From the NCBI GenBank assembly GCA_008632985.1, contig QPGO01000369.1, positions 1 through 37,631 on the forward strand: 37,631 nucleotides of DNA, read 5' to 3'. A program made the translations under genes and the position numbers. The DNA comes from Psammoneis japonica (Eukaryota). Below are positions 1 to 37,631 of this stretch, piece by piece. The notes under the pieces are model-generated. The model worked only from the letters and a program-made list of their open reading frames with translations, was not told the DNA's origin and made no database searches. Numbering within the stretch: position 1 is the stretch's first letter; each line of letters opens with the position of its first letter.

Positions 1-3000
1 GTCAAAAACACTTCGGTCAGGCACAAGGCACCCCTCCAACGGCACCTCCGTTGTCCATGGACCCAGGCCATGAAGGTGACACCATTGTGGCGGATCTCAT
101 TCTTGATGGCGAGCATGACACGTCGGCTTTGAACGAAGCAACTGCCCTTTTCATCAACCACTTGCGTCGCCGTTCCCCAGTCTCTGCACCGAATCTTCCA
201 TCTGCATCAGATCTTGAAGGAAAAATAAAACGTTGGAAAGAATCCACCTCCACGTCCATTTACTCCGGCCTCCACCTGGGTCATTGGAAAGCAATGTGTG
301 CTCCTCATCGGTTCTCAGATGCAACTGATTCCGAAGGCAATCCCACCCCTGAACGTGAGGCCCTCGATGAAGTTCAACAATCCCTCACTCAAATCAGGTT
401 GAATCTGCTTAACTGTGCCCTTCGTTGGGGATGCTCCTTTCACCGCTGGCAAGATGTTGTCAACGTGATGATCTTTGAAGAGCCAGGCAACAACAAGATG
501 CATCGTCTCTGTGTCATCCATGTCTGCGAAGCTGACTTTCAATTAATCTCGAGCGTCAAGTGGCGCGCTCTGGCCCAAAACATGGAACACCGCCAATTGT
601 GCAACTCGGGGATCTGCGGCACTCGCGCCTTCTTAAATGCCAACACTCCTGTGTGCCTTGAAGAACTCATGCTCGAGATTGGCTGTGCCTCCCGAAAATC
701 CGCTGTTCATGGCGATGATGATTGCACATCGTGTTGCGATCGGAATGTTCCCGCTCTGGTTGCAATTGAGAGCCGCAGCAATGGCATGCCCAAAGAAGTC
801 ACTCAAGTTGCTGACGCTGCTGTTCACAAGGCTCGCTGCTGGTTGCGAACAGTGCCAGGCCTGTCACTAACTTCTTGTTCTCACTCTGATGACTTCCCCA
901 TTTACGGAACAGGACAGGGCAGCGGAAACTCTCCATTTTGCTGGAACCAAATTTGCAACAGTCTGTTCCAGATCTTCGATCAACGGGCACATGGTGCATT
1001 TTTCGAGTCCCCAGATCACTCCCTCTTGCTGCAGATGTTCAACGGAGGACATGTCGACGACACGTCCAAGCAGGTGAACGATTTTTGTTCGAGTCCTCAA
1101 CCTTGCATCCTCGATTTGGATTTCAAGATGCAGGAAGATAATCAACTGTGGTGCGACCTTTTGAACGCGGCTGGCCACGAGTTAGAATTGCCCAAATGCT
1201 CCTTCCACGCTGTCGAATGGATGTTTGCAGTGGACGGCGAACCTCACCTTCGACCCTGCAATGAGGACATTGACATTGAAATCTCTTCTGCAGACCATGC
1301 CACGACTGGGTCAAGCAAACAATTGTCCTCATGCTCTTCTCACAAGACACTTGGACACCACAAAGCTCCAGCGGGGACTCAAAAGACCCAGCACTCGGCT
1401 CTGAAACAAAAGAGTGACGGCATTGCCCTGTTCCTTTGGTCTTGTCCTTTAGATCGACACGAGTCATGGACTCACTGTTTTGCTTGTTGTCTGTCTGCAA
1501 CCACGCATGTTCTCCCGAACACTCACTTCAAGGAGAAAGAGTTGCTCGAAGTGCAGAGGAAGGCCATGCGTGCCATTTTTGCCAAATGTGGATGCAATCG
1601 GAGCTCGAAACGTGACGTCCTCTTCGGACCTCATTCCCTGGGAGGCGGTGGTTTCAGATCTTTAGACGTGGAACAGGGTGCAGCGCAGGTTCTGCAGTTT
1701 CTCACCCACTGGCGGGGCTCTGGGCAACCTCAGGTGTTGTCACGAATCGCTGCATCGTGGATTCAGTTGCAGCTTGGCACAGGTGTGAGTTTTCTTCAGG
1801 ACGTCCATGCCAAGCTCCCTCATTCCGAATCGAAATGGTTCATGTCCTTGCGTTCATTCTTGGCCCGGATCGATGCCACCATCGATTGTGATTGCACTGG
1901 AGTGCTTCCACTCCAGCGAGACAACGACCAACACATCATGGACGTTGTGCTTCAATCCCAGGCGTTCAGTGATCGTGAGATGCGGTGGGTCAACTGCTGT
2001 CGTCTTTGTCCAAATGTTTTGACTCTGTCGGACATTGCCTCTCCGGATGGTTTTTCGCTCGATCCCTTTAAAGTGAACGGCCGATCGTTCCTTCTCAGCA
2101 GTCGCAGTGCTCTGAATCCTGTCGAACAACAACGTCCATCTGCTTGGGCATGGAAACAGTGGCGTCGAGCCTGTTCCTTGTTTTGCAAACCAGACTCGCT
2201 CGATCTACGACACCCTTCAGGTCAATGGGTTGCACCAGCTACGGAAATGCGCATGACACATGTCGCACATTACAAATCCTCCGAGGATCACTTGCACATT
2301 CGTGGAGATTCGGGTTTTGAGATTTTCCCAGTGCACCAAGGTTGTGCGGAGACTCTTGCCGCTCTGGAAAACGTTCCAGATCTTTCCCCAGCCGCTTCCC
2401 CTGTGCCAGCAGATACGACTGCAACTGGTTTGTGGCGGGTCAAGTCATTTGGTTCTCCAGCATCCTTGCTGACAGTCCTTCCCGTCCCGAATGATTTCTT
2501 GGCTGTGCTGCAGTCTCTTCCTCGGTGGGAATCTGCTCTGTTCGAAGAGTTGCATTTACATTGGTCTACATTTGAAATCGCTGAGCTCCTCGTCACCCAC
2601 AAGGTTTCAGCAGCTAGCGACGGTTCGGTCCTCCATTTCAAAGGCACATTCGGGTGGACGATTGCGATCGACGGGGTTCCTCTTGTGGATTGTGCCGGTC
2701 CAGTTTTCGGTTTTCGCCCATCGTCTTATCGTGCGGAGGCATGCGGTCTGCTGTCTTTTCTCTGTTTTCTGATCCGATTGTCAGACTGTTGTTCCACACA
2801 GGTCAGCGGCGCCGATTTGCATTGCGACAATTCCGCTCTCATTCGCACTGTCTCGAATTTCCAGGTGATTCCTCATCCTGCCAACAAGGAGGAGATCCAA
2901 GGAGACTTCCACTGGCATTTTCATGTTGCCAACACTCTCTCTCCGGATTGGGACATTGTCAATGAGGTCTTCCATTCCCTGAGACAGCTGTCAGAAGCAC

Positions 3001-4245
3001 GCACTGATGAACTGTCATGTCCTGCAGTCGAGATTCACTGGGTGAAGGGACACCAAGACGACATCCTTCCCATTGACTCTCTCTCTCAAGCGGCGAAGTT
3101 GAACATGCGTGCCGACAGACTCGCTGGACAACTCCAAGGTCGATTTGTGGGCGATGCTCTTGCTGCTCCCCGCATGCCTCATTGCCAAGCAAACCTGCTT
3201 CTTCAAGGAGCCACTGTTTCTTCCAAATGCAAGCCAGTTGTCAGATGTCAGGCATCGAGTCCCGCACTGGTTCAGCACATGAAAGAGAAATGTGGTTGGT
3301 CCGACGAAGTGTGCGCATCGATTGACTGGGATGTTCATTCGAAATTGATGTCACGAAACATTCGTCGAAAAGTCAGTGCCATCAAGCTGGTTCAAGATCT
3401 TCTGCCCACCAACAAGATTGCACACAGATGCAATCCGACACGTCCGGACTGTTGCATTCACTGTCAGGACCCCATGGAAGATAGAGACCACATTCTCCAT
3501 TGCCCTCACAATGAAGCCTGGCGCAGAAAATTTTTGCAAGGATCACGCAAGAAGTGCGATGACACTCACACGTCTCCTTCCTTACGAGACTTGATGGTTT
3601 TGGCTGTTGAAGCATGGTTTCGAGGCGAGCTTTTGCACTCGGAACAATTTCATCACAACGTCGTGCCCGCATTTCATTCCCAAGGGGAAACAGGTTGGTG
3701 TCAGTTGTTTGATGGCCGTTTTTCTGTCCAGTGGAATGCGACGCAAACCTCTTGCCTTTCGTCGAGCGGCATTTGTCGGACTCTCTCAGATCAACAGAAA
3801 CGGCTGGATTGGGCTGCAACCATTGGGAATTTCACATGGGAGCAGTGGTGGGACCTCTGGGATGCTCACAATGACGCTGCACACGGACACGATTCGGAAA
3901 CGAGGAAGTCGTCTCAAAGACGAGACGCAGAAGCAGAGGCCAAGGCCATTCATTCTCGTGCAGACGATTGTCTTGCGAGAGACAAGGCGCTCCTCCTTGA
4001 TTCGGCAGAAGAACACCTGTCACACTCCACTCACCGGATTCGAAACTGGTTGGCCATGTTCAAACCAGTCTTTAAATCAAGCATGCGCGAAGCCAAACGT
4101 TTGGCTGCACGAGGCACCAGAACCATCGCAAGTTGTTTTGGCGCGGCATCACCCTTGGGTGACGCCGATCTTGGCCAACCACTGTTTGCTCCTGCCGCAC
4201 TTTTAGTGTGCTGGGGGTGTGGGTTGGCTTGTTGCCGGAGTTGCA
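1..4245 (+). mobile_element. Non-LTR retrotransposon (LINE, RT + RNase H, diatom Ambal-like architecture), 5' part outside the window
   Basis: Long ORF2 with RT, RNase H and a C-terminal Cys/His knuckle. The 3' segment 4190-4245 (ctgccgca...gtgtgctgg..gtgtgggt...gttgc) matches the 3' end of the minus-strand copy at ~6856-6912, which defines the approximate element end. Confidence 0.85.
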
Positions 4246-4295
4246 GGGTGGAAGCGCAGCAGCACTGTAAATGTGGAATTTTGGTTTTGTTTTGA
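51..4295 (+). pseudogene. LINE ORF2 (reverse transcriptase, RNase H, zinc knuckle); open but hypermutated
   Basis: RT motifs IYGTGQGSGNSP and GGHVDDT (normally [YF]VDD). RNase H motifs ASDGS, SSYRAEACG, HCDNSAL, WVKGHQD, NMRADRLA. C-terminal CIHC...DHILHC. Only 4 Tyr in 1414 aa. The true start is upstream of the window, and the native stop was probably near 4140-4200 and lost. Confidence 0.85.
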
Positions 4296-5122
4296 GTTGG
4301 TGCTGGACATCGTTCTTGTTGAAAACAGCGTTTGCAAAAAGGCGCGAGATGATGGTGTGCAGATGACCATTGCTGTTCTTCAAGGTTGGCTCGAAAAAGC
4401 CCAACCCATGGTTGTGGCCGACCAAACATCTGCAGTTGAAGCGATGCCAGCACATGAACCCCTTTTTGGTGGACGATCAACTGGCGAGTGGAACAAGAAT
4501 TCAAGCATGTGCCAGTTGGCCAACAGGTGCCTGTCAAAGACCATCAACACAACGGACAGCAATGAAGAGGCAACGCACAAGTTGAAGGCAGAATTCACTG
4601 AATTGAACAAACAGCGTGGCGCCGTTGCTTGTGCCATCGCTTGCATGCAGCTGGGCAAAAATGTGACTCCAAAGCGGCTGAAGGATGAAATCCACTGCAG
4701 GGGATGCAATGCCGATGACGAATTTGATTGCTCAGATGCTGACCCTTCCAAAAAAAAGTTTCGAACTGTCGTCCAATTGGAAAAAGAGAAACTGTGGGGC
4801 GAGGCTGCGGGGAAATTTGTGTTTGACGAGGATCAAAGTTGCAGCGACCACAACAACTTTGACGAGTCCCACAAGGACCCAAAATCAGCGGAAGAGCATG
4901 CAATGATCGATGCAACACTCATCCACCAGAATCATTTCAACACCTCCCGACATGAACACTTGGAGCTCAACAAAGGTGGGTTCGACAGAGGCCAGGACAT
5001 CGATCATTCTCAAAAAACTGGAGATTCCGAGCACACTGCTAAATCTCAGCCGTCAGCTGCGAGGCAGCAGGAAAATCCTGAGGTCGACGGTGTCGAGACG
5101 AATGAAACGACAGGAACTTCTG

Positions 5123-5213
5123 GTCGGTCAGCCAAGTGGGGCGAAATGGAGCCAGTGATGGTCCCAAAATGACACAGTCTGCACCTCACACGTCGACTCT
5201 GAACATGATGCAG
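5123..5213 (+). other. Putative spliceosomal intron (91 nt)
   Basis: GTCGGT donor, CTCAC branch-like motif at 5185, CAG acceptor. Removal restores the frame (G|AA = Glu). Confidence 0.55.
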
Positions 5214-6702
5214 AAAATGCCGAGTTGGTTGAACATGAGCAAGGCATCATTTCTGAATGGTTTCAAGACAATGAATGCACAGTCCCAGAAGGAACCGTGA
5301 TTCAGGAAGATGCAACGAATGGTGATGCAGCACAAGATGCAGCCAAGCTGGAAAAAGACGACCTTGCATCTGTGCAACAAAAGGGCCATGGTGATGGCCA
5401 GAAGGCAGAAGAAGGCAAGTCTGAAGAGGGGCAGAAGACATCGTCAGGTGAAGCATTTCAGCCAGGTGAGCAAAGGCGAAATGGAGCCAGCCATGGCCCC
5501 AAATGGCGCTGTCTTCGTTTCTCACGTAAAACCTTTCGAACGCTGTGCAGACAAACAAGACTTGGACAAAATGGACCCAGCACTGGACCCAAATGGCTCA
5601 CCCCGTGCTGGGCAGGACATTTCTGGAAATGTGCAAGACCATGGCTCCTTTCCAGTCCAAGACGATGATGGCGAGATGCAGGGATCACAAGACAGCATTG
5701 AGGATCCCGTTGCATCTCTGAATTCACACAAAGCCTCAGAGGGTGATCAGTCTGAAGCGGCTTCTCAAGAATTTGACAGTGCATCTGAAGAACTGAGTGC
5801 AGCTGGAGAGGAAATCCAGGCGGAAGAGGAAAGCAAAGCTGAAGAGAAATGCCAGAAGGAAGTTGAGCAGGAGGATGCGGAGTCGTCAGGCAACAACGAT
5901 GATGGGAAATGTGGTGACGGCAACAACAGAGCAAGCAGGCAAAAACGGGAGGGAGATCGTCAGAAAAAAAATTCTGACAAGAACGATCGTGACCACGAAG
6001 ACAAAGCCAACAAGCAAAGTGGAACAGAAAAGGTGCGGAAAGAATTGTTCCAGAACAAAGAGCACAACAATGATGGAGACGCGGAAGGACTTCCAAAGGC
6101 AATCGAACAGGACCAAGAGTCTGAAACAGCAAGCATTGTCAGCGACGGATCTGACGCACCAGAGCTCCCTGTCGTCAGCGATCAAAAGGCAGCTGTCGCT
6201 GCCTTGAAGGAAAGGGATCCAGCAATGGCAACCATCGAAACATTTGCCACAGCACAAGAGCGGGCAGAGGGTCGTCTGTTTTTGGAAAAGACGAGACAGG
6301 AAGCCAAAGCCAAGAAGAAAAAAGCAGATTCCGGAAAGAAAAGAAAGACAGAGGGCCTCGCTGCTCCACCAAAGTCAAAAAAAAAGAGGAGGGTCATCGC
6401 CACCACGCCCCGTTCCTCTGCGAGAAATCAGAGCAAGAGAAAGACGGGCTGAAACATCAATTGTGCAAAACCACAATCATTGCATGTGTTGAAATTCGTC
6501 TGTGTTTGTGCACCCGGTGTTTTGGCTGACTTGCCAAAATGACATTGCAGTTGTGGACAGCAAACCAGCGTCCAATCCCAGGGGTCATTGGCAATTCCAG
6601 TTGCAGGTCGAAATGGGTCCAGCGTTGGTCCCAAAATGGCACAGTCTGTCCATCACCCGGCAACCGAAATGGGTCCAGCAAAGGTCCCAAATGGGCAGTC
6701 TG
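5143..6702 (+). repeat. Dispersed ~37-nt motif, 5 copies (approx. GAAATGGRNCCAGCNNTGGNCCCAAA(A)TGGNNCAGTCTG)
   Basis: Copies at 5143-5181, 5478-5514, 5568-5600, 6610-6648 and 6666-6702. Confidence 0.75.
5466..5550 (+). other. Putative spliceosomal intron (85 nt)
   Basis: GTGAG donor, CTCAC at 5521, TGCAG acceptor. Removal joins the 5225 frame to the 5310 frame (G|AC = Asp). Confidence 0.7.
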
Positions 6703-6796
6703 TGCGTCGTGCGTCGCCATTTTATGATTAAAAACATTGACGGATGACGTGCAGACTCTTGCCCCAACCCAAAACCGAACCAAAAAGATGCACATG

Positions 6797-6855
6797 CTAA
6801 CCCTGACCCCAAACCCTGACCCCAACCCCAACCCCAACCCTGACCCTGGCCCCAA
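6797..6855 (-). repeat. Degenerate interstitial telomeric repeat (TTAGGG)n
   Basis: On the + strand: partial CTAA, then 9 hexamers (3 CCCTGA, 5 CCCCAA, 1 CCCTGG). All are transition derivatives of CCCTAA. Confidence 0.8.
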
Positions 6856-7132
6856 GCAACGCCAGCGCCGGCTGACCCACACTTCCAGCACACCCTGCAG
6901 AGGATGCGGCAGAAATTGTGTGTGATTGGCTGGATTTGGCGCCTCCGGAAGGGGGGCGCCTGACGGAGATGGCTGAAGATGGTGCAGGTGCCTCTTTTGG
7001 CCAGGCGTTTGGCTTCTTTCAAGCTTTTTTTGAGTCTTGGGAGGGCCACCGAGATCCAGTTTTGAGCCCTTGTTGCAGAAAATGAACGGCGTTTCTCGAC
7101 TGAATCTAGCAACACTCCCCTGTCTTTTGGGG

Positions 7133-7522
7133 GATGCGCTCCAGGTCCAGGTGGGACCTTGCACCGCTGAGCTGTGACATCGACAGTTTTTTGAGTCTCG
7201 TCGCATGTCGCGCACATGGATTTCTGCTTGATTTTTTTGACATTTTGCGTCATTTTACGGCGCACTTGTTGAGCGATCCGTCCAACAACTTTTGACATTT
7301 TTTGTCACAGCGCGTTTCTACAATGTCTTGAGAACCGCGCAGGGCAGGTGAAGTTGCAAAAACGTCGAGTGGTGAGAGGCACAATTGCACCACAAACTTG
7401 GCCATTTGTTTGACGTTGAAGACAAATGTGTCCATCAATTAAATTCTCGCACTGCAGAGCTCGCATGCAGAATTCCACGGGCCCAATGTCACACGGAGTC
7501 CCACCCAGGGCTGGAACGCGTC
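7133..7522 (-). mobile_element. MITE family A copy (~390 bp, TIR GACGCGTTCCAG.CC.GGGTGGGA)
   Basis: Terminal inverted repeats. The interior is a reverse-complement homologue of 17781-18172. Inserted in the LINE C-terminal coding region. Confidence 0.8.
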
Positions 7523-7830
7523 TGGGATGACTTTCAAAGACTCAACATCGTGTCCGTGAACTGGCTTGCCATGCTCTTCCCACAGCTCCCACCAGCTTCT
7601 CCATGTGCAGGATCCCAGCTGGACCGTCCAATCTGGTGGTTGTTTGTTCTCCTCTTGACATTGATGCAAAATGCCTGAATCATGAAGATGACCGGATTGC
7701 AGGAGGTTCCACACAAGCGAGCATCTGCCGTTGAAGATCTGTTGCCATCCAATGTCTGACTGAGCTCTCCACAACTCCTTGCATTGGCAATCCCCGTTGT
7801 TGAGGTGAGTGATTTCCTCACCAAACCAAG

Positions 7831-8106
7831 TGACAGAAATTGAAGGCAAATGGCAAGAATTCAAACAATGGCTCCTTGCTGCTGTCTAAATGGCAGATGA
7901 GTCTCCGCTCAGAGACCATTGCAGGAGCCGAAAGACGTGCAAGTTGGTGCAATCGGGCCACTGTCATTGTTCTTGTGAGCCTTGTGGCTCGAAAGCAAAC
8001 TGCATTGCGCACGAACGCGCGGAACTAAAGCACACAAAACTGTGCGCGGCAAACTAAACAGCGCGTGACATTTCGCGTGCACCTGAATCCTGTTCAAATC
8101 CTGTCA
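7831..8106 (-). repeat. 3' LTR of copia element
   Basis: 276 bp, TG...CA ends, ungapped alignment to 14655-14930 with 27 transition differences. Confidence 0.95.
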
Positions 8107-13717: not shown

Positions 13718-14654
13718 GGCAGACAAAAGTGGTGTCAGGACAAGCAATTCCTGCTGGGAAGCGAAGGTAGACTTGAAACTTGGGTGAGAATGGACTTGAC
13801 TTGAAATGGACTTGACTTGAAATCTTGAACTGTCTTGAAGTCAGAAGTCGCCGGGCTGTGCCATCCCGTTCGTTGTTGAGTGCTAAACTTCCCATCCGGT
13901 CCACAGAGTTGTGCCGGCACGTCCAAACCCGCAGCCAGCGGCGCTTTGGGTTGCTTACGAGTGGAGTGGCGGGTTGTAAACCCCTGCAGGCAAGCTGACC
14001 AGAGGTGGACAAGACCCCCGAACCGTTCTTGTTTTATGTCGGTTGGATTTCCCGATCAGGCTGGCCAGTTGACGAAGGCGTTGGGCGCCGTGGACGAACG
14101 AACAAACGCGGGAAAGCACCCTCGCCCCAACGTAGGCTGCAATCACGGCCACTTGCTCTCACAGTCGTCCTCGTGGACCTGGCAGAGCTGCAGAGCACCA
14201 GCAGTCCGGGGCAGATCAGGTGCAATGGACTCGGCATGCTTGCAGGGTGGCAGCAAAACCGCAGTCCGAAGAGTGGGTGCAAGTTCTTGGCCGTGAAGAT
14301 GTGCACATGTGCGTGTGTCTTCAGCAACGAAGATGCTTGAACATGTGGGGTTCTTGACCATTGGCCGATGAATGGGCACATCAAGGGATGAGGATCAAGG
14401 GTGGACTTGGACATGACCGTTGATGTGTGTCTTCAGCGATCAAAGGCAGTGTGATCAATCCAGACATCCAGCGGTGAGGAGATTTGACGGTGACGTTAAA
14501 TTCCTGCCGATGCCTGGCATTGAATGCGCGCAGACTTGCCGATGTGTGTAGAATGCATGCAGAGGTCCATGCAGAATTGAAGTGGCGTCGTCAGCAAATC
14601 AACGATGACGATGGCGGTTGCTCAATGGGTTGACAATGAGCAAGACTGTTGGTC

Positions 14655-14930
14655 TGACAGAAATTGAAGGCAAGTGGCAAGAATTCAAACAACAACTCCT
14701 TGCTGCTGTCTAAATGGCAGATGAGTCTCTGCTCAGAGACCGTCACAGGAGCCGAAAGATGTGCAAGTCGGTGTGATTGGGCTGCTGTCATCATTCTTGT
14801 GAGCCTTGTGGCTCGAAAGCAAACTACATCACGCGCGAACGTGCGGAACTAAAGCACACAAAACTGTGCGCGGCAAACTAAACAGCACGCGACATTTCGC
14901 GCGCACCCAAATCCTGTTCAAATCCTGTCA
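14655..14930 (-). repeat. 5' LTR of copia element
   Basis: 276 bp, pairs with 7831-8106, followed by TSD CCAAG. Confidence 0.95.
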
Positions 14931-23670: not shown

Positions 23671-23792
23671 TAGAACACCAGTTGTTTTTCATGCGTTTTG
23701 CAAACACATGTCAAAAACACAAGGGATTTCCCACCCTCAATCGTTAAATGTCAATCAAGAGTTGGTCGCAGAAAGATGCCAACTTGTCATTT

Positions 23793-24087
23793 GCAATCAA
23801 AAGCAATCAAAAGCAACAATGAGTGATGAAAAGTGATCACAAGCAATCAAAAGTCATCACAAGCAATCACAAGCAATCATGAGCAATCACAAATGATCAC
23901 AAGCAACCGCAAGCAATGAAGACAAATGTCCACAGACAAGCTGACACAACAGCCCTTTAAATCTGACCGTTGACATGACATTTTTGCACAAGAGACACAC
24001 ACTCGACTTTTTAAAGTAATCACAAGCAATCAAAAGGAATCAAAAGCAACCACAAGTGATCACAAGTGATCATCAGTCATCACAAGC
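23793..24087 (+). repeat. 10-bp tandem satellite, inferred ancestral unit AAGTAATCAT (mutated copies, two blocks)
   Basis: Units aagcaatcac, aagtgatcac, gagcaatcac and aagtcatcac at ~23793-23920 and ~24013-24087. The array continues at 26810-26860 beyond the Sola element. Confidence 0.8.
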
Positions 24088-26809: not shown

Positions 26810-26860
26810 AAGTAATCATAAGTTATCATAGAGTCATCACAAGTCATCATAAGTCATCAC
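26810..26860 (+). repeat. 10-bp satellite, TpA-retaining copies
   Basis: aagtaatcat aagttatcat agagtcatcac aagtcatcat aagtcatcac. Confidence 0.8.
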
Positions 26861-27280
26861 CAGCCCCAACGACTTAAAACATAAAAGGTGTTCTTTGCCA
26901 AACAAGACTAAATTCAACGGATAACCGTTACGAACTACAAATCACGCAGGCCAAAATTTCCGTTGTAGTTGTATGAATACGCATGACTTATAAAAATTCG
27001 CGGACGGTGCGGTGCAGCATAAATCTAATGCTGTAAACGGAATGACCGTTCATATGAAATATTCATTCATTTATGACCATGACCAAGTTCTATGTTCCAT
27101 GTTGCACGTACAGTACAATCTACGTCTCTCAGAACATACAAAATGCCAGCCATCAATGACCTCATTTTTTACATCCGATTTCTCCTGGTAGAAACGGCGT
27201 GAAGCCCATAAAAACAACATCACCTTTCTCCTCTCATCGTGTCTTCTTGATCCAACTTTTGATCTTATTCAAGCAAAACG

Positions 27281-30116
27281 ATGCTCCCCCGTGTCTTTGC
27301 CTTTGCCTTGTTGCTAGGGTCGGCAGCGGCAAACAATAAGGACGCCGTTCCGCTCTTCAGCTCCCGAATGCCGGCACCCTCGAAGGCCTCTCCGTATCAC
27401 GTCCCAGGACACGTCGACCAGATTCGCTTGAATCGAGGAAGTCTCAACGCCGCTACTATCCTCGTTGATCTCTTTGAAGATGGCAGTGCCCCCTTGACTC
27501 TTCGCCAGGACCGCACCGTAATTGGCAAGCGCGGCGAACACACCTGGATGGGTCAGGTCGTCGGCTTTCCTAATAGTGTGGCCTCCTTTAGCTTCCACAA
27601 AGGAGCAATTTCCGGTTCCATCGTTTACGGCGTCTCTGAGATATTCGAGATTTCGTCGGAACAGGGTGGAACGGCAATCTTTGCGCAGATTGACGAAGAC
27701 AAGCTTCCTCCAACGAAGGAACTGTTCCCGCCCGCTTCTCGCAGGCTCCTCCGTGGAGCAACCGACGGAGACACCATCAGCGAGCAGACCAGTCTTGACA
27801 CTTCGGATTCACACCGGAGGGAGCAAGTCACCTCTGGAAACACAGTACAAGACATTATGGTGGTATACACGCCAGCCAGCCGAACCAGGTATGGTGGCAT
27901 CGCGGGAATTGAAGCTAAGATCGTGGAAGCCATCCAACTTGCAAACCAAGGCTATATCAACAGTCAAATCAACCTCGAGCTGAATCTTGTGTACATGTAT
28001 GAGGTAGGCTATACAGAAACAGGTGACATGGGTCTCACTCTCAGTCGCTTGAGAACTCCCGGCGATGGCTTTATGGATGAAGTGCACTCCGTTAGGGATC
28101 AATATGGTGCAGATCTTGTCGCCATGATATCGGAAGACAATAACTATTGTGGAATTGCTTATGTCATGACGAGTGATAGCTCAGACTTTGCTCCTTATGC
28201 CTTCAGCGTGACATTTTCAAGTTGCATTTCCGGATTGACCTTCACCCACGAAATCGGCCACAATCAAGGTACGTTCATTATTTTTCCATTGTCTCATTCT
28301 CTCCCATTTTCTCATCCCGTTTTCATTGCTTCATTTATAAATAAGGTTCTACCCATAACATCGAAAACGGGGGAAGTGCCGCATATCCTTATTCCTACGG
28401 TTACCGTGTATGTAACGATGGCAGTCTCCCTCCCCCCTACTTTCGCACTATCATGGCCTACGGCTGCACCGGGGCAACTCGCCAGAATTTGTTTTCCAGT
28501 CCTAACCTTACCTACGAAGGCGCGGTAGCTGGTACCGAAACTGCCAACAATGCTGAAAGCATCCGCAACACCATGGCCATCACGNCGCGTTTCGAGCTTC
28601 GGTGACTGTTCCCGCCCCGAATGCACCTTCGAACTTGGAGGCCACCACCGTCGGCGCAAACGAAATTTTAATTTCCTGGCAAGATAACTCCTCCAATGAA
28701 GAGACCTTCAGGCTGGAGCGATACATTGGTCAGGGTCCATGGGAGGAAATTGAGTCTCTTGCAAGTGATGTCACCTCTTTCAGCGACATTACAGCGCCAT
28801 GGACGACCAACTCTTACCGTGTTCGTGCCGTCAATGGCGGTGGTTCCTCTGAATATTCAAACGTTGGCCAAGCAACACTTACAGCGCCGACAATGGGCTC
28901 TGTGACGGCAGCGGCCCTTTCTGGAAGTGAAATTCGGCTAAATTGGGGGGAAATTGATGGAGCGGACTCCTATGTTGTTGAGAGGTTGAGTGGAGGAAGC
29001 TGGCAGGTCTCTGAAACGACGTTCACGGACACTGATCTCCAGTTGGCAACGGAGTACTCCTACAACGTTACAGCTCAAAAAGGACTAAGCTCTACAAGCC
29101 CATCGCCCACCGTGTCTGCCACAACGAGTGATAATGTTGAAGTGTTCCCTTCGACCGAGACCAACAGTTTTGGAACGGTGACTGGTTCTCTCGCGCGCCT
29201 TGATGCCGCAGATGGCAATGCTGAATCCATCCGTGAAGAAGAATCTAGTGGCAATCCTAGTCGCCGTATTTCCCGATTGTCTCATGAATGGTATTTCACC
29301 CTTCCAAACGGATGGGATCATGCCACCGTAACTGCCACAGCGTGGCACCAAGGCGAAGAAGCTTTCAATTTTGACGTCTCCCTGGATGGAGGAAACAGCT
29401 TTTCAAGATTGTTTGTCGTAAACACAATTCCGCAAGCACCTACACGAAACTTATTTCGGGGTCTGGTGTCAGCGATGTAAGAGTGCGAGTACTTGATGCT
29501 AATCGTGTCCAGGGAGAGCGGACTCTTGACACTGTCTACGTTGACCAGCTTTTCATCAAGGCTTTCGTGAGTACTGGCGGTGGCAGTCCACCATCAGCTC
29601 CGTCCAACTTGGTGGCAGTGGCACCAGAGAGCACCGAAGTGCAGCTCACCTGGAACGACAACTCTATAGATGAGTTGGGTTTTGAAGTTGAACGTAGCGA
29701 GGATGGTGGAACGACCTGGGTCCCCAGCGCCACGACCGTGACCGCTTCTTCGGTGGACTTTGACGTTTTGCCTTCCGCTACGTATGACTATCGCGTGAGA
29801 GCCTACAATACAGCTGGAAATTCTGCATGGTCCAACGTTGCCCCAGGTAGTTGTCCCCGCCCCACCTACAGGAGGCCCAATTACCCTGAATATCACGACC
29901 CGCAAGGAAAAAGGATTCAACGTCTGTGACTTAACTTTCTCTGGTGCTACCACAAGCAATGTTGAAATCTATCGAAATAGTGCATTGGTCACAACCACCC
30001 AAAATGATGGATTTTACATGGACAACACTGGCCAAAAAGGAGGCGCGAGCTACGTTTACACAGTGTGTGATGCGGGTGGTTCGACCTGTTCACCTGACGT
30101 GACCGTGGTCTTTTGA
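27281..30116 (+). CDS. Secreted metzincin zinc metalloprotease (reprolysin-like M12B / peptidyl-Asp M72-like) with fibronectin type III repeats and bacterial-type C-terminal domains
   Basis: Signal peptide MLPRVFAFALLLGSAAA. Splicing of intron 28269-28345 gives HEIGHNQGSTH (HExxHxxGxxH), then YSYGY and Met-turn FRTIMAYGC. FN3 repeats (APSNL...WQDNSSNE...YRVRAVN). Apparent frameshifts at ~28585 (next to an N), ~29425 and ~29843 (C-run) are probably assembly errors. Normal Tyr and TpA content. Confidence 0.85.
28269..28345 (+). other. Spliceosomal intron (77 nt) splitting the zinc-binding motif
   Basis: GTACGT donor, pyrimidine-rich body, AAG acceptor. Phase 1 (G|GT = Gly) and it completes HExxHxxGxxH. 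Confidence 0.9.
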
Positions 30117-30528
30117 AGAAACTACATCCCACGCGTTCCATTTAAAGTTCTATAGGCATAGAAAACTGGCAGTTCATTGCCTCTCCTGGAGCCTACTAAT
30201 GACGAAAAAGTACCTTGTCAATGTGTCCGCCTCTTCTCTCACGTCGTTTGGCATAGGGTTGGTGCTAAGTAGGACCTGTGTGCTCTCTAGCCAGCTAAAA
30301 GAGAGCAGTCTGTCCGTCCGCATTCTTGATTGATCGGCCATGGACAAGTGATGGCCTGCTCGTCGGCTCGAGCTCGGCTTCTCACTAAATCGTTGGCTTT
30401 CCCGTTGAGCATGTTGAAGGTGTTTACGTAAAATTGTTCATAGCCCCTGGTGTGTTGGGAGCACTGTGACTGAATGTGCTGTGTGGCACATGGAAGGAGG
30501 AGTCCCCACTCACAAAACAGAGCAACAA

Positions 30529-30933
30529 GACGGTTCCAGTCCTGCCGGCAGCTGGGTGGGGCTGTTTGCAACATTGGGCCCTCGGAGTTCTGCACGCAAG
30601 CTCCACAGCAAGATTGCAAAGCAATGAATGCATAAATGATTGCCAACAAAAACAGAGCAATTTTGCAAGCGCATCTCCTCCTCCACACTTGAGGTGCATC
30701 ATCTGTGGTTTGCCCAGGCATGTTCTTCAGACATGAAGGAATGCACCCAGCATGTTTTCATTCCCACAAATGTGGAACATGGAGGGCCTTTGGCTTTGCA
30801 AAACAGGGAGCATGAAACAATTTTGCATGAGATCACAGGCAGAAATGTGAGTGTGTGACATGGGGCACAATCCAAAAAACTCTTGGTGTTGCAGCTCAGC
30901 AGTGCAAGGTCCCACCTGGAACTTGAGCACACC
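30529..30933 (+). mobile_element. MITE family A-related copy
   Basis: GACGGTTCCAGTCC start and GCAAGGTCCCACCTGGAACTTGA end. Interior homologous to 35224-36132. Confidence 0.65.
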
Positions 30934-31252
30934 ACAAAATTGGCAAGCCTGACAAAGAAGGCAAGGTGCCAGGGAAGGTTTGGCACCCAGGCCCATTCCA
31001 CTCATGATGATGATGGGCAAAGGTGCTTGTTTGTCAGCTGTCAGCATCAACTCTCCATGGTTTCTGATGGGGATGATGTGTTGAGATGCCCAGATGACAG
31101 CAAACAGAAGATTGGGCAAGTGGGGCTCTGTTGCACATCATTGTGGACAAGAAATTGGATTTTTGAGCCAGGGCTCAAGCCCAGAGCTTGAAGCATGTGA
31201 GCCAACAAACACTCTGTTTTTAAGAAAAGATGGTGCATTCAGGCCAGGACGT

Positions 31253-31756
31253 GATGTGCTTCAGCCGCACATGACTCACAGCGTGCACAAAAACAACAAC
31301 ATTTGCATCTGTCTCTGACTTGCAAACAACCTTTCACCACCAAAAGTGCAGACTCATCCAAATTTTGATGTTTGGCAACACTGGCAAGACTCGTGTTGGT
31401 GTTTCAGTGTCGCTGTCATTGTGGAGCAATTGTTTGTCAGAGCGTGCATTCCAGTGATCAAGGGTGCCTTTCTCACAGTTTTTTTTTTCACTGTGACAGG
31501 ACACCAGATGTTGCACGTGGTGATTTTTTGCAAACTCCAGATCTCTGCAAAACTCGTCAATCACAATTGTTTGTGTGCTTGTGTCTCATTTTGGTGTCCA
31601 ATTTTTACAGGGGTGCAAAGCTGTGTGCTGCAAATCAATTGAATCAGCGGTTGCTGTTTCAATGTTTGCACTGCTGTGACCCAGAAATGACTGCCACCAT
31701 GGATGCTGTCTCCTTGCCAGACTGGCTGTCTCACTCTGTTTTCAGTTGAACAAATC
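31253..31756 (+). mobile_element. Decayed MITE related to 33893-34422
   Basis: Shared start GATGTGYTYCAGCYGCACRTGAC and interior caccaccaaaag...gcaacactggcaagact. Right end uncertain. Confidence 0.5.
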
Positions 31757-32261
31757 TCAATGCAACAAAAGAGCAAAAGCAATGCCTCACACCCAAAGCA
31801 AGTGGCGACAGCGTCAGTGCAAACCTTAGCTGATTGGATTGTTTGCACATGAGCGCACCTCTGAATTGTGACTTTGCAACTGTCCCATCCAGGGACAGAC
31901 CACTCCATCCAAATTCATTTGGCTCCCGCAAATCGGCAATGACAACACTGATTTGTCTGCATGCAACATCCTCTCACAGAGAGGCAAACCACAGAAACCC
32001 AAATTAAACCACCAGCAATGCTGGCTTGGGAGGTCAAAGCATGTGGGCGCAAGCCACAGGTGTCTGACCTTGGTGTTGGGACATTTGCCCAAAGACACAA
32101 GAGCAAAGTTTCCAACGCCACTCTCCTGTGACCTTCTTTGCAGCAGATCTGCCAGGTTTGTTTCTGCGCCCTCTTTCCAAACATGAATGATGCCCTCTGC
32201 AACCGCTTCTCACACCACATGACAGATGATGACATTGTGCTTCTTGTGCAAGACCGATTTG

Positions 32262-32351
32262 GGGACACTTCCATTCCACATGCACGACACCATGATTGTC
32301 GCAAAAGGGACACTTCCATTCCACATGCACGACACCATGATTGTCGCAAAA
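32262..32351 (+). repeat. Perfect 45-bp tandem duplication inside the old copia RNase H
   Basis: gggacacttccattccacatgcacgacaccatgattgtcgcaaaa x2, followed by gacactt microhomology. Confidence 0.9.
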
Positions 32352-33892
32352 GACACTTGCTGGACCCTCAAGAGGTGCTCCAAACGTGCAAATCTTGTGA
32401 TGCAAAGCAACAAACAACTCCTTGCAAATCCGCGCTGCAGCCAACTTGCTGCCAAAAGTTGCCAACTCTGCTGTGTTCTGCCATTTTCTGTGCCATGTGA
32501 TTGGTGCATTGTTGACAAATGTCAGGATTCTGCCATGAGACCTGCAAGTGACAACATTGCCTGCATGGCTGGAATCAACAAAGGCGCAGATGTTGACCAG
32601 GTTGCCATGGAGCTTGGGTGCCCACAGCGGCAACTCTTTCTCAATGTCCCACAAAACTTGGTCCAATCTGCACTCAAGTTGAATGTGGGCTCATCAGCTG
32701 CCAGCTCCTTTGGATCAAACCCCATCCTTCCAAAGTTCTGGTGTTTCTTCACATGCGCAAACACACAATGCAAAGCCTTGAGGTGTCCCTTCCTTGGGCC
32801 AGCTTGACACTGGGAAAGGATTGAGACCTCATGCAGAACATCAGCAGGGCCCAACTTGATTGCATGATGACAAATTCTTGTCAGCTGCAGATGCCTGTCA
32901 ACTGGATCATGGCCCAATTTGTCAATTGCACCCAGCTCTGGCTTGCACTTTGGGGGCAGAGGATCCTTTGCGGCGCTCTTCAGTGCTTCTCCATTGCCAT
33001 CCTCATCCGAGAGACCTTCCACCACTGCTTGAACACATGCCCTTGGCGAGCTTGCCCAGATTGCATGTCCATCCTCAGTCTGAACCTTCTCAACATTGGC
33101 CCCAAGGTGGATCTCTGGTTCTCCATCACTGCCAGGCTTCACAGCACAGTGTTCACCTGTGGCAGCAACAATGGACTTCCCTTGAGATTGGAGTCTCATT
33201 GACACAAACCAAAAGCATTTCGCAATGCTCGTGCCCACCCTCCCAAGTTGCCACTTGCAGGCAGACATTGGGGTCCACTCTCATTTGTTCAAACCCTGAT
33301 TCGTGCAAGACCAGTGCCAGCCTGGATCTCCAAGAGCATTTCTGAGCTCTTCAGACCATGCAATGCACAAACAACAATGAGCGCCTTTCCTTCATGCTTG
33401 ACACATTCCTTGCTGCCTTCAAACCATGGCTTTTCTGCACATGGTGCATTCAAGTGCACGTTCTCTGGGTCAATTGCTGTGATGTCAACTCCATTCAAAG
33501 CTGCTGACAGGAATCCAAGTTGCACGCTGTCTCTGGAAACAATGCTTGAATGCATTGTGGATGATGGAGCCTCTGTTGTGTGACCTCCTGCCACAAATCT
33601 TGCCTTTCTCGTGAAGTCTGTCTTTGCACTGAAAACCATTTGACACACAATCTCCTGACAGCCAAGCAAAGTTGTGCTCTTGCCTTCCCAGATGCCTTGT
33701 GGGGTTTGAGCTTCATGCTCGTGCCACACCACTGCTTGACCTTGGTCATCTCCTTGTCAATCGCACAAGCCCAATGATCTGTCCCCATTTCCTGACCAAT
33801 CTTCAAAGCATCTTCCGCAGACTTGGGCAAAAGAATCCCAAACTTGTGGGTGGCAAGCCAGTGCTTCATCTCAATCTTCAAAATGAAGTGAT

Positions 33893-34422
33893 GATGTGTT
33901 CCAGCTGCACGTGACCCAAATCGTGCACAAAAATGACATTTGCGCAATTTTTGCGCAGTCTCTCACTTGCAAACAAGATTTCACCACCAAAAGCATGGAC
34001 TTGTCCAAAATTGAATGTTTTGCAACACTGGCAAGACTTGCATCAGTGTTGCCATGTCATTGGTTTTGTGACATCTGTGTTTTTCATTGTGACAAATGAC
34101 TCACAACACAATGGATGATTTTTGGCAAAATTGTTGCCATCACTTGAATGTCAAATCAAACAATTTTTCTGCAAGACCTTCTGACAGGTGTTCCACCTGT
34201 GACCAAAAAACTGCATCCAATGAGCTGTCGCACAATCAGCACTGAGTCTGCAGAGGGAGTTTGTGGTGCATGTCCCATGAGGAATTGAATGCCAAGGCTT
34301 GAAGACCCACAAAATCCCATCCACCCAAGTGTTTTGCATTCACATGCTTCATGCACAAGAGACACATGATTTGTGGTAAAAATTCATTGTCTTTTGTGTG
34401 TTGCCTGAGACTGGAACACATC
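33893..34422. mobile_element. 530-bp MITE with 12-bp TIR GATGTGTTCCAG and 4-bp TSD
   Basis: GATGTGTTCCAG...CTGGAACACATC, flanks TGAT/TGAC. Interrupts copia pol. Confidence 0.75.
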
Positions 34423-35223
34423 TGACTCTGCTTGCACGGGACACGCACAACCCACAAGCAAGTGCAGGTTGCTCAGCCAACCTGTTTGTTGCAACAGGAT
34501 GCTCAGCAACTTCAACAGGGTTGGACTCTTTCAGATCCTTCAATTTCACCCATGACAAGCTTCCATCCTTGGCTCCAGCTGACCAACAGCTTCCAACCTT
34601 TTGCAGTGGTCCTTTTTGACTCCTGTTTGTCAGCAATTTGTGCTGTTCCATCATTGGTTGGCATTGCGTTGCCTGTCTTCTCATGATCCTGCATCTCTTT
34701 CAGTGCAAAACATTGGTTGTCTTCACTGTTGACTTGAACAAACCTGTTCTCAGCAGCTGCACTGGCTGTGTGCTTGTCTGTTGCACCATTGGCACATTTG
34801 ACTTCATGCTCTCAAGTGTCAAATGTTGGGCTCTGATGTCTGGTCCCAGCCAGATGCCCATCTTGTCCTTTTGCCTGTTTTGTGAGGACACCTCATTGCT
34901 CACCATTGGCTCCAATGTCAAACACAAGTTCCATGCCCAGATGCTGGTTGATTGCCTGCTCATTGTCATTGTCTGGCCGCTTGTCTGGCAATGGCATGTC
35001 TCCACATTCCTTGTCCGTTGGCATGACACCATCCTCACATTGGACACTGGGATTGTCATCTGTGGCAAGATCATCCAATGCAAATGCTGGCACAGCTTTG
35101 TCACCCTCTGAAACAAAGCCAGTGTTGCCCAGGTGTGTCTCAAGTTGCCCATTGAACTTGTGAACCTCAACATGGATGTCAGGCTGCACCACATTGGCCT
35201 GCGTCACATGCTCCACCAATGTT

Positions 35224-36132
35224 GACGTGTTCCAGCCCCAGGTGAGACTTTTTGTGACATGGTGCCCGCCAAATTCTGTGTGCAAGCTCCACAGCAAAAT
35301 TGCCAAGCAACAAAAGTGTGAATGATTGCCAACAGCAAAAGAGGCAATTTTGCAAATGCATCTCCTCCTCCACACTTGAAGTGCAGTCTGCTCGCGTCAA
35401 CACATGCTGGGGGTGCATGCCGAATTTCAGCACATGTCACAGAGAGGATGTGTGTCATTGCTTTCTGGTGCAAAAGCGTGCATCTTTGCCACACACACAG
35501 AACAAGTGCCAGCACATGCGCAGATTGAAATCTTGCGCTTCTCCCTCACGACTCATTTGTGCTACGTTCGTGCAGCCACCACTGCAATTTTTGAAAAAAA
35601 CCATGACATGCCTTCATCTGTTCTTTGGTCCTGCCAGGCGCAAAGAAGCCCAGGACCACTTCTCAGAGGCAAACAATGGTCAATGAGGGCATTTTCAGTT
35701 GTTTCAAGCGCAGTCTTAATGACTTCATTGCCTCAAACTGGTTGCATCACGGATTCACGACATGGCCTGTCGGTCTGTCAGTCTGTCTGTTAACAGGGAA
35801 TTCTGACCCTTGTCCGAGGGGTCAGGCCAGACATTTGGCACATGTTGTAGAGTGGGCACATGTTAAAAAGCATGTGTTGATGCAAGCAGACTGTGCATTG
35901 TTGACAGCATGGCCGGGTGTGTTCTTCAGACAATGAAGAATGTGCCCAGCGCATTTTTGTTGTCACAAATGCAGAAAACAGAAAGCCTTCGGCTTTGCAA
36001 AACAGGCAGTGTGGAACAACTTTTTTGCAACAGAACATGGAGAAATGCATGTGCAAAACATGTGACGGATGACAAAAAACAATCATGTCACTGTCCAGCA
36101 GTGCAAGGTCCAACCTGGAGCTTGAACGTGTC
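35224..36132 (+). mobile_element. MITE family A-related copy carrying a nested insertion
   Basis: GACGTGTTCCAGCCCCAGGTGAGA ... TCCAACCTGGAGCTTGAACGTGTC, flanks TGTT/TGTC. Collinear with 30529-30933 once 35384-35893 is removed. Confidence 0.75.
35384..35893. mobile_element. 510-bp Tc1/mariner-type MITE (25-bp TIR starting CAGT, 2-bp TSD)
   Basis: CAGTCTGCTCGCGTCAACACATGCT / AGCATGTGTTGATGCAAGCAGACTG, flanked by TG on both sides. The empty site is visible in the 30529-30933 copy. Confidence 0.8.
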
Positions 36133-36725
36133 TGTCTTTGGGAGACTGTCTTCCTGCTCTCCACAATGATCCAACAGCACATGTCCAGTCTGACTTTGTG
36201 TGAGACACCAAGCCACCAACCAAGCTGTCATTGGGCCACCCACTGCACTCAGCTTGTTGGGCCTGTCCCGCCACCATGCCATGTCACAAAAGCAAAAATC
36301 CAAGTGCTCGCCAATTTCCAGTGTTTGCCCAGTGACCTCTTTGCACCCAGCCCTCTCATCACTGCCCCACACCATGTGCAATGACAGCTCCAACTCATGA
36401 ACAAGACCAAAGTCCCACAATCTTTTTGGCACCTTCTTCTTTGCCATTTGCAGTCGCCAATGCTTGGCCAAGAAACAGATCTTGCACTCCGCTGCTTGAC
36501 TCTGGTTCTTTTGACCCTGTTCTGATGTCCCAAGTTCAATCCTCACATGACGCGCATGCCTCACAAACTCAGCAGTGCTCCTGCATTGTCTGTAAAGACA
36601 ACAAGAGACCAACCTGCCTCCAGCCTTGTGGCCATCAGCATGACCTTGACAAATTTGCCTTGAGTGCAGACATTGGCACACGTGTCACCGAGCAAAGACT
36701 TGACCTTGGATGTCCATGAACCACA

Positions 36726-36915
36726 TCCCTTCTTTCAAGTGCTTCCAATGTGGGTCCAAATGGTCCACCCTTGCTCTTCTTGACACATGTCCCTTCTTTC
36801 AAGCACTTCCAATGTGGGTCCCAATGGCCCGCCCTTGCTCTTCTTGACACATGTCCCTTCTTTCAAGCACTTCCAATGTGGGTCCAAATGGTCCACCCTT
36901 GCTCTTCTTGACACA
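36726..36915 (+). repeat. 64-bp tandem triplication inside the old copia
   Basis: Units start at 36726, 36790 and 36854 (tcccttctttcaagYRcttccaatgtgggtcc...cttgacaca). Confidence 0.9.
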
Positions 36916-37631
36916 GGTTGAGTTGCCATCTGCGTGCCATGTTGGGCAGCCACATTGAGCATGTCTTTTGCCGTTTCCAAGCTGATGCTCCATTTCCTGG
37001 CCAGCTCTTTGGCATCAATCTTGGAGTGTCTGTCCTCACTGTGTGGCTCCTTGATGGACTTTTGCTTGGCATCAATGTCATCTTGACACGTGCAAGCCAC
37101 ATTGACCAAGCCAATGAGCCTGTCTTAAAATGACTGGAGGTGACAAACTGGGGACAAATGGGTCAGCTCGACTTCAACCTTGCCCCAGCCAACTGCTTGG
37201 GACTTTGCCCTGTCACGCCTTGATTCTGAAACATCTTCCTGTCACATGTGCCGGAAGTTGATGATCTGATGGTGCGCATCTCTGCCTGTTCTCCAGTGCT
37301 TTCTGGCAATCCCATGTCAACTTCAGTTGGATCCCATGCGTTGCCTGTCAAAAGCACAACCCCAAGGGCACACTGAATTAATCTCACGCATTGGGCAGTG
37401 CCCCTGACCCCACTTTCACCCCAGATTGTCAAAATGTGTAAAACACCCCTGTTTTGTAAAATGCCCCAGTGACAAGCAGCAGCTTGGGTCATCATGGTGC
37501 TTTCGACAGTCGAGTCAAGTAGTTTTTGCTGTTTGCGCATTCAAATTGCGTGCACTGACAGTGAGTTCTAACTTCCAGGTTCCTTCTGGTTTTGATCTGA
37601 CATCAAACATGACCAAACAACAGCACCAACG

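Follow-up and report, generated by a model that had tools for sequence, protein, structure and literature searches.

Results

Layout of the window and loss of TpA from its flanks

The DNA studied here is a stretch of 37 631 nt from Psammoneis japonica (contig QPGO01000369.1 of assembly GCA_008632985.1, positions 1 to 37,631, forward strand), hereafter called the window, in which one host gene for a metallopeptidase is set between long tracts of transposable element (TE) and other repeat DNA. Analyzing its dinucleotide content, we found that TpA had been almost completely lost to TpG or CpA from the tracts on both sides of the gene, and that this loss ended at the borders of a short island holding the gene. 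The three parts of the window are the following, with ratios of observed to expected dinucleotide counts given as o/e.

1..26644, no strand: left hypermutated tract, continuous TE-derived DNA, recognized by its dinucleotide o/e
26645..30445, + strand: untouched island with the host gene and unique flanks, TpA o/e 0.64, CpG o/e 0.94
30446..37631, no strand: right hypermutated tract of unclassified multi-copy repeats, TpA o/e 0.04, CpG o/e 0.25

In the left tract there were 116 TpA, as compared to 1558 expected from base composition (o/e 0.07), and in the right tract 18 as compared to 473, whereas the ratio for the island is ordinary for coding DNA, with 158 TpA in 26650-30445. Relative to an island-like density, about 87–94% of the TpA had thus been lost from the flanks, with the depleted sequence totalling 33.8 kb of long interspersed nuclear element (LINE), copia, DNA transposon and unclassified repeat DNA. 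TG and CA were correspondingly high, at o/e of approximately 1.5 in the left flank and 1.8–1.9 in the right flank versus 1.15 in the island, with CpG at 0.71 in the left flank and 0.25 in the right. AA had an o/e of 1.25 versus 1.16 in the island and neither AA nor AT was depleted, while TC had an o/e of 1.14 in the left and 0.96 in the right flank. The left edge was sharp to the base, with zero TpA in 25224-26644 and about one per 12 bp from 26645 on; at the right edge the last dense TpA was found at 30441, with the next ones at 30633 and 31221.

The depletion was also evident from the encoded proteins. Tyr made up 0.3% of the 1431 amino acids of the LINE open reading frame (ORF), 0.4% of 1655 in copia and none of the 747 in the transposase frame, as compared to 3.3% of the 422 residues encoded by exon 1 of the host gene, and both Cys and His were raised in the TE reading frames. 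The initial annotation of this DNA had described TpA as near-absent from 1-26640 and 30450-37631 with normal density in 26650-30445, and had counted 4 Tyr in the LINE, 7 in copia, none in the transposase and about 13 in exon 1 of the host gene; our recounts bear out both statements, and the host gene is clearly not depleted to the same extent as its surroundings. With regards to two further points that description needs qualification. The segment called normal is so in its TpA density but is not unique throughout, since its first part (26645-26890) is TA-rich but multi-copy, as described below, and the excess of TG and CA stems partly from loss of TpA, with decay of CpG in the flanks supplying the remaining part.

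Mobile elements in the flanks

The elements upon which the subsequent analyses rely are listed here with coordinates, strand and the basis of their assignment.

3..4295, + strand: ORF of a non-LTR (LINE) retrotransposon (LTR, long terminal repeat), 5' end cut by the window edge; domains of relatives
15808..17237, - strand: second, diverged LINE fragment, paralogue of 447-1358; self-comparison and peptides
8054..13840, - strand: copia (Ty1/copia) polyprotein, RVT_2 E 4e-23; main frame 8876-13840, continuing in 8054-8875
7831..8140, - strand: copia 3' LTR, TG..CA with ends approximate, following a purine-rich tract
14655..14972, - strand: copia 5' LTR, TG..CA; alignment of the LTR pair
24465..26654, + strand: ORF of a DNA transposon of the DUF7869 family, 729 aa with zero Tyr, DUF7869 E 3e-20
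22632..23670, no strand: imperfect palindrome of about 1 kb, whose arms are about 77% alike and differ by 12 TG/CA doubles

The LINE ORF itself gave no match in a Pfam scan, and it was identified through its 6804 relatives at E≤1e-3, the full-length ones of which are about 1900–2000 aa long, because all five intact relatives scanned carried an N-terminal Exo_endo_phos domain and one of the five also gave a weak RVT_1 match. Its reverse transcriptase YxDD box reads HVDD. The second LINE fragment differs from the first copy at just the kind of residue of interest here, having LCGTGQG at 16764(-) and SSHRAEACG where the first copy has IYGTGQG at 900 and SSYRAEACG. This difference between the copies had already been noted in the initial annotation, and the other peptides quoted there could all be located, with RAEACG at 2730 and 15808(-), ATHGSEF at 8474(-), RCKHGCEVPRNC at 9803(-) and ETHCFSP at 25695. 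For the copia element, having LTRs of about 320 bp, a target-site duplication and a tRNA primer-binding site were looked for by eye and none was recognizable. The named relatives of the DUF7869 ORF are diatom (Psemu1) proteins at 25–31% identity, and the TpA-free tract stops 8 bp short of the TAA stop codon of this ORF.

TpA was the ancestral state and was converted to TpG or CpA

We asked whether TpA had been lost or had never been present, using residues conserved as Tyr among relatives of the three classified elements. For copia, columns with at least 80% Tyr among 45 full-length relatives (from 120 listed) were used; the DNA transposon was compared with 28 relatives (from 41) having 600 aa or more, and the LINE with 40 (from 150) having 1500 aa or more. 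In the 31 copia columns the window had Tyr in 4, Cys in 13, His in 12 and Phe in 2, in the seven columns of the DNA transposon it had Cys in six, His in one and Tyr in none, and in the four LINE columns Cys in three, His in one and Tyr in none. Pooled over these 42 columns, the window thus had 4 Tyr, 22 Cys, 14 His and 2 Phe. Of the other conserved residues 479 of 515 were retained in copia, and five relatives analyzed in the same manner by leave-one-out retained 34–35 of 36 Tyr. Six control relatives of the DNA transposon retained 6–7 of 7 Tyr, and of six LINE controls five retained 5–6 of 6 and one retained 3 of 4. The LINE also displayed Ile-to-Met or Thr and Leu-to-Pro or Ser changes, as predicted for ATA, CTA and TTA codons.

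The base composition gave the same answer. Taking the o/e ratios of the island as reference, the left flank had a deficit of 881 TA and 414 CG, together 1296, balanced by an excess of 1247 TG and CA, and the right flank had deficits of 285 TA and 293 CG, together 578, with an excess of 630 TG and CA. It was also clear that the TE families are not themselves poor in Tyr, as none of the 311 fetched relatives had less than 1.5% Tyr and none of them was a close Tyr-poor paralogue; these families therefore normally contain Tyr. The conserved Tyr columns turned Cys or His, together with the mass balance, identify TpA as the ancestral state, and the TpA of the flanks was lost to TpG and CpA.

Two sets of contigs from public sequencing runs of one sample in one study, here called X1 and X2, allowed comparison with other sequence. 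At 24197, 24482 and 24523, all TG in the window, paralogous X1 contigs had TA; they also showed TG/CA double differences to the window at 24628-9, 24947-8 and 25353-4 and, at some sites, CG in place of its TG or CA. A third set, X3, had no contigs placed on the window. Single-copy X1 contigs at a depth of about 50 matched the TpA-poor flanks almost exactly, with 0 differences in 312 nt, 1 in 283, 1 in 633 and 2 in 862. X1 is not simply the same sequence as the window, since over 3501 nt of the host gene the two differed by 11 substitutions and by 6 indels. These comparisons make it extremely unlikely that the TpA-poor sequence is an artefact of sequencing, basecalling or assembly, such as misreading of modified TpA in repeats. 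The host gene of the window does have 1-bp indels and one N in relation to X1 and X2, suggestive of an error-prone assembly, but contigs assembled independently from the k-mers of a public run reproduced the TpA-poor sequence, the host gene was normal within the same assembly as the flanks, and misreading would neither settle consistently on TG or on CA at a given site nor give rise to TG/CA differences that are specific to each copy.

The conversion occurred in DNA, on both strands and after the copies had parted

The two LTRs of a retrotransposon are identical at birth, and those of the copia element differed by 33 substitutions, of which 31 were transitions. Seven sites were TG/CA double differences, as expected if the same ancestral TpA was mutated on opposite strands in the two LTRs; 11 sites were CG in both and 10 were one-sided CpG differences, from which a model of CpG decay predicts only 1.1 doubles. 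Likewise, the palindrome arms had 12 TG/CA doubles with 0.3 predicted by CpG decay and another repeat pair had 7 with 1.9 predicted. Because the LTRs, identical when the element was made, now differ by TG/CA doubles, the ancestral TpA must have been resolved separately in each copy after the copies parted, instead of the lack of TpA having been passed on by a master copy.

Three other ways of producing TpG and CpA in repeats can be judged from the same counts, and as a sole cause their joint probability we consider next to nil. Decay of CpG is real in this DNA, with CpG o/e of 0.25–0.71 and Arg-to-Cys, His or Trp changes in copia, and it gives the same TG and CA products, but TpA is beyond its reach, and for the LTRs it predicts 1.1 doubles where 7 were counted. 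GC-biased gene conversion among repeats lacks specificity for one dinucleotide. Patch repair by Pol eta at WA motifs would also hit ApA, which has an o/e of 1.25 versus 1.16 in the island, and would give transversions, while nearly all of the LTR changes are transitions.

It is likewise very unlikely that the TE families had evolved avoidance of TpA or UpA by selection, for instance in response to a UA-cutting RNase or a TA-specific nuclease, and that TpA-less master copies seeded the window. Avoidance of UpA is common in RNA viruses, and residues of copia having codons that begin with A showed few of the changes to be expected from TpA spanning codon boundaries (one Ile-to-Val and one Thr-to-Ala) in spite of the loss of Tyr, which fits with selection. 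However, conserved Tyr residues, including catalytic ones, were replaced by Cys or His in 36 of 42 columns, non-coding LTRs and unclassified repeats were depleted equally, sister LTRs and palindrome arms had resolved the same sites differently, paralogues keep TA where the window has TG, and no relative among the 311 was poor in Tyr.

With regards to strands, the ratio of TG to CA was 2637:2441 in the left flank and 811:850 in the right (z=+1.5 and +1.6), and no strand-coordinated, kataegis-like tracts were found in the flanks. Since the DNA transposon was hit equally hard as the retroelements, and since TG and CA were balanced without strand runs, we conclude that the event took place on DNA, on both strands, and not in an RNA intermediate. 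The strand-symmetric process acting at the DNA level in TE DNA and sparing the gene, as proposed in the initial annotation, was thereby upheld by the polarity of the changes, the LTR pair and the strand balance.

A contrasting route would be that double-stranded TE RNA underwent A-to-I editing of the ADAR type and that the edits reached the genome when this RNA was reverse transcribed and reinserted, to which we ascribe a probability that is very small. That two of the three elements classified belong to the retroelements is in line with such a route, but the DUF7869 DNA transposon, having no RNA or cDNA intermediate, retains 0 of 7 conserved Tyr, both strands were converted about equally, and the LTRs have diverged mutually by TG/CA doubles. 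ADAR moreover prefers G as the 3' neighbour, while the preference here is T (see below). The preference of ADAR for a 5' U does agree with the TpA target (as given in Mettrop et al., bioRxiv 10.64898/2026.01.13.699255), but in Bigelowiella natans, the subject of that preprint, the corresponding change is described as arising de novo in resident DNA.

The 3' neighbour of the target adenine sets the efficiency of mutation

The few TpA sites that remained were not a random sample. Among the 134 surviving TpA, the T was preceded by A (or, equivalently on the other strand, the A was followed by T) in 4%, versus 26% in the island, and the contexts of the surviving sites differed both from those expected from the base composition of the flanks (chi-squared 111.6, p=7e-20) and from those of the island (p=5e-11). 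Expressed as retention of NTAN tetranucleotides in relation to their density in the island, values were 0 for ATAT, 0.007–0.03 for the other ATAN, 0.05 for GTAC, 0.10–0.22 for CTAC, GTAA, CTAA and CTAG, and 0.42 for TTAA.

A context model in which the two strands are hit independently, at a rate that depends on which base follows the target A on its 3' side, fitted these data under both of the assumptions made for the ancestor (chi-squared 3.9 and 8.7 on 6 degrees of freedom). Survival per strand was 0.60–0.62 for TAA, 0.34–0.41 for TAG, 0.22–0.29 for TAC and 0.04–0.06 for TAT, so that the efficiency of mutation by the 3' neighbour of A follows the order T >> C ≥ G > A.

The same rule can be read from the side of the thymine, as a preference for the 5' neighbour of a mutated T in the order A >> G ≥ C > T, and a thymine lesion would give identical products with identical symmetry. 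Such a process could consist in TET/JBP-type oxidation of T at TpA in silenced DNA to 5-hydroxymethyluracil (5hmU) or 5-formyluracil (5fU), mispairing with G and giving T-to-C changes; 5fU does mispair with G. We consider this explanation, the foremost of the alternatives, rather unlikely, 5hmU in this organism being purely hypothetical. In dinoflagellates 5hmU has been linked to TE silencing (as reported in PMC11572971), and it is described as enriched over repeats in Breviolum minutum, with a TA and TC preference noted for Crypthecodinium cohnii in the 1980s, but in the B. minutum report no sequence preference of 5hmU was recovered (PMC11071213). A TC preference would, furthermore, predict loss of TpC, and TC o/e was 1.14 in the left and 0.96 in the right flank.

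Decay of CpG as a second layer, and consequences for reading frames

A second kind of change is superimposed on the loss of TpA. CpG o/e was 0.71 in the left flank, 0.25 in the right and zero over 30700-31100, and copia showed Arg-to-Cys, His or Trp changes. Since the decay of CpG varied between elements while the loss of TpA was uniformly near-complete, the two are separate, and the CpG-to-TpG/CpA decay is presumably an independent, slower layer caused by deamination of 5-methylcytosine (5mC). The stretch of about 400 bp at 30700-31100, having neither CpG nor TpA and with TG and CA making up about a quarter of all its dinucleotides, is the joint end state of both processes.

A change of A:T to G:C at TpA removes TAA and TAG and never creates a stop codon. 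Accordingly, the six frames of the left flank contained 100 TAA, 68 TAG and 1169 TGA, as compared to 81, 69 and 151 in the island, and the mean stop-to-stop length rose from 24 to 37–39 aa in hypermutated DNA. Because TAA and TAG had been erased, spurious long ORFs of up to 666 aa had appeared antisense to TE genes, at 24384-26384(-) and 8996-12943(+). Judged from their sequences, with HVDD in the LINE and 36 of 42 conserved Tyr now Cys or His, the TE copies are predicted to be inactivated although their long frames stay open. Gene finders will consequently over-call genes in such TpA-erased dead elements, and the TpA o/e in combination with Tyr-to-Cys or His changes at conserved sites may serve as a detector in annotation.

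The host gene island

The island contains one gene, as follows.

CDS (coding sequence) from 27281, within 26645..30445, + strand: host gene, M12B reprolysin-like metallopeptidase with fn3 repeats; Pfam and contig X2

A 77-nt GT..AG intron at 28266-28342 was absent from contig X2, which extends to 30170, and because the intron was removed X2 behaves like cDNA. The protein had nothing above 48% identity among database proteins of 575–2000 aa (shorter models would be missed), and its relatives are bacterial-type, the named ones being proteins of bacterial metagenome-assembled genomes with the same architecture. The gene is thus a candidate for having been horizontally acquired and being now expressed. 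At three places, 28583-28585, 29424 and 29841, the window carries 1-bp indels relative to both X1 and X2, by which the host ORF is broken up into three frames; one of these places adjoins the single N of the window, and the indels are probably assembly errors in the window rather than real frameshifts.

The segment 26645-26890 at the left end of the island is TA-rich and follows directly after the transposase stop, with a loose motif of about 10-bp periodicity at approximately 26810-26860. It was multi-copy in X1, where other copies read TA at two positions (26687, 26700) at which the window has TG, and is a repeat that has barely been hypermutated.

Further features of the flanks

An unclassified repeat pair, 84% alike and inverted, at 7133-7522(-) and 17781-18172(+), brackets both copia and the second fragment of the LINE, and may represent the termini of a composite or nested element of larger size. 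In the right flank none of the nine ORFs scanned gave a Pfam match. Besides the LINE ORF, 24 flank ORFs were scanned against Pfam, of which 19 had no match, 4 had weak, sub-threshold chance matches and 1 corresponded to the fn3 of the host.

Discussion

The observations presented here establish the direction of the change and its sharp edge, its occurrence at the DNA level and on both strands after the copies had duplicated, and its context rule. The explanation that best accounts for them, and which we hold to be very probable, is that all TE DNA of the window was hit within the chromosome by a process converting TpA to TpG or CpA, akin to the hypermutation seen in B. natans. By this explanation the LINE, copia, DUF7869 transposon and unclassified repeats would have been converted from A:T to G:C at TpA while residing in the chromosome, with either strand hit, each independently of the other, until near saturation. 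Tyr codons would thereby have become Cys or His codons and TAA and TAG stops would have been erased, such that the copies would die with their frames open, and the process would halt at the edges of the unique DNA of the host gene.

As to chemistry, deamination of adenine to inosine by a TadA/ADAT-like polynucleotide deaminase, acting on 5'-TA of either strand in chromosomal DNA, has in our view about an even chance of being correct. The natural substrate of TadA and ADAT2-ADAT3 is A34 following U33, and thus a 5'-U/T-A context that resembles the TpA target, but we know of no natural enzyme of the TadA/ADAT family shown to edit chromosomal DNA at TpA. The context rule offers a biochemical fingerprint against which candidate enzymes could be compared, in that conversion of TAT is over 10-fold more complete than that of TAA and the strands are independent. 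If the enzyme indeed is a natural DNA adenine deaminase, this would be of importance both for the biology of genome defence and for base-editing technology.

What directs the process to its targets is a further question, and targeting by repetition, by foreign origin or by chromatin state are indistinguishable within this window. A plain rule of targeting any repeat is argued against by 26645-26890 being TA-rich but multi-copy, and simple spreading of chromatin by the edge being sharp to a single base without spill-over. The process may serve genome defence. As a tentative and rather doubtful extension we propose that a lineage other than Bigelowiella is represented here, that the defence is more widespread among protists, that its natural enzyme edits 5'-TAY on either strand, and that sequence, recognized through homology or small RNA, directs it with base precision, as opposed to a spread of chromatin. 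If that would be true, there would exist a natural A:T-to-G:C counterpart of repeat-induced point mutation (RIP) and a natural DNA adenine editor.

Several results weigh against these interpretations or limit them. Concerning the context rule, of 46 ancestral Tyr codons those preceded by a purine had become His in 12 of 22 cases and those preceded by a pyrimidine in 6 of 24, which is in the predicted direction but not significant (Fisher p=0.069), and a constant ratio fitted to these data (logL -30.8) describes them no worse than the parameter-free context model (-31.3). Two of the six copia Tyr codons kept at a 60% threshold are TAT, the codon that is most mutable by the rule. Concerning strand symmetry, the transposase (24465-26651) had a Cys:His ratio of 10:1 when counted in columns of at least 50% Tyr, a local strand bias not expected under the symmetric model, and the LTR differences could in principle date to the cDNA, before integration. 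The repeated yet TA-rich segment 26645-26890 means that the statement that all repeats were hit is not strictly true, and the contrast to the flanks consists of a single host gene within one window. X1 is known only as Logan contigs from one sample in one study, and neither edge of the island is spanned by any of the contigs listed, which in itself is not evidence against adjacency. Finally, TpA being palindromic, events centred on A and events centred on T give identical products.

Two of these points have details of their own. The surviving TAT codons encode the Tyr of the YVDD box (copia residue 1538, 9226-9228(-)) and residue 1292, and their survival could be due to chance, to local protection or to selection before the copy died. 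The Cys:His ratio of copia was 13:12, unlike that of the transposase, and local TG:CA counts account for the transposase bias only partly.

Comparison with known systems

The initial annotation had stated that nothing like this process was known, which does not hold, as a preprint on B. natans reports the same spectrum arising de novo (Mettrop et al., bioRxiv 10.64898/2026.01.13.699255); in our literature search this was the sole description of the phenomenon found. According to its main text, 231 of 302 nuclear mutations in 15 mutation-accumulation lines fell in an integrated nucleocytoplasmic large DNA virus (NCLDV) and virophage, and 230 of those 231 were A-to-G or T-to-C, all 230 on TpA. 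The rate is given as about 1000-fold above background, with a main target that is single-copy, and 324 TpA-poor coding sequences are described as enriched for reverse transcriptase, endonuclease-reverse transcriptase and DDE domains, next to 124 clusters of depleted 1-kb windows. Its authors propose a defence against foreign DNA by an ADAT2-like deaminase, with Bn78255 as candidate. From the 211 mutations, 6169 TpA and 3132 generations given there, we calculated a rate of about 1e-5 per TpA and generation, corresponding to a half-life of about 6e4 generations, by which any old insertion would be expected to be saturated, as in the window.

As far as the preprint describes it, the process in B. 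natans is like that of the window in changing TpA to TpG and CpA only, on both strands (with 22 of 42 conserved Tyr of the window turned to Cys and 14 to His), in affecting only foreign or mobile DNA and leaving host genes alone (the window offering one gene as contrast), and in leading to long-term loss of TpA with gain of CpA and TpG. It differs in having been observed de novo in viral insertions that are only partly depleted (Rho TpA 0.45), with involvement of TEs deduced from Pfam enrichment and clusters defined as at least three 1-kb windows. The window, in turn, has o/e values of 0.04–0.07 over 33.8 kb of TE DNA, together with polarity at the level of residues, timing by LTRs, a 3'-neighbour rule and a sharp edge. 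The words 'trinucleotide', 'flanking' and 'retrotransposon' occur zero times in the main text of the preprint, and its supplementary tables, which lay outside this word search, may overlap with our results. What we regard as new here is the saturation of three TE classes, the residue-level polarity, the LTR timing, the 3'-neighbour rule and the base-sharp left edge, and the window is a new instance, and the most complete one found, of a process described in one preprint of 2026.

In comparison to better known systems, the process in the window is like RIP of ascomycetes in being a dinucleotide-specific transition hypermutation at the DNA level, on both strands, that kills TEs and spares genes. 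RIP, however, changes C to T at CpA and thereby creates TpA and stop codons, whereas in the window TpA was destroyed, CpA and TpG were made (o/e 1.5–1.9) and stops were removed. RIP furthermore needs duplication and a sexual cycle, while the main target in B. natans is, by the preprint, single-copy. RIP as the process acting in the window was therefore rejected, the signature (TpA o/e 0.04–0.07) being its opposite. Deamination of 5mC also gives TG and CA and is present in the window as the second layer, but it acts on CpG, which in the left flank has an o/e of 0.71 as compared to 0.07 for TpA. APOBEC3 and ADAR resemble the process of the window in producing clustered transitions in a dinucleotide context that cripple mobile elements; APOBEC3, acting on cDNA, however gives C-to-T and G-to-A changes, and ADAR gives A-to-G changes that are strand-specific, RNA-mediated and found in retroelements only, whereas here a DNA transposon was hit as well, and on both strands. 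An A:T-to-G:C hypermutation of mobile DNA is thus the mirror image of RIP and APOBEC-type defence, and the window displays its end state, with every TE class stripped of TpA, an edge sharp to the base and long frames kept.

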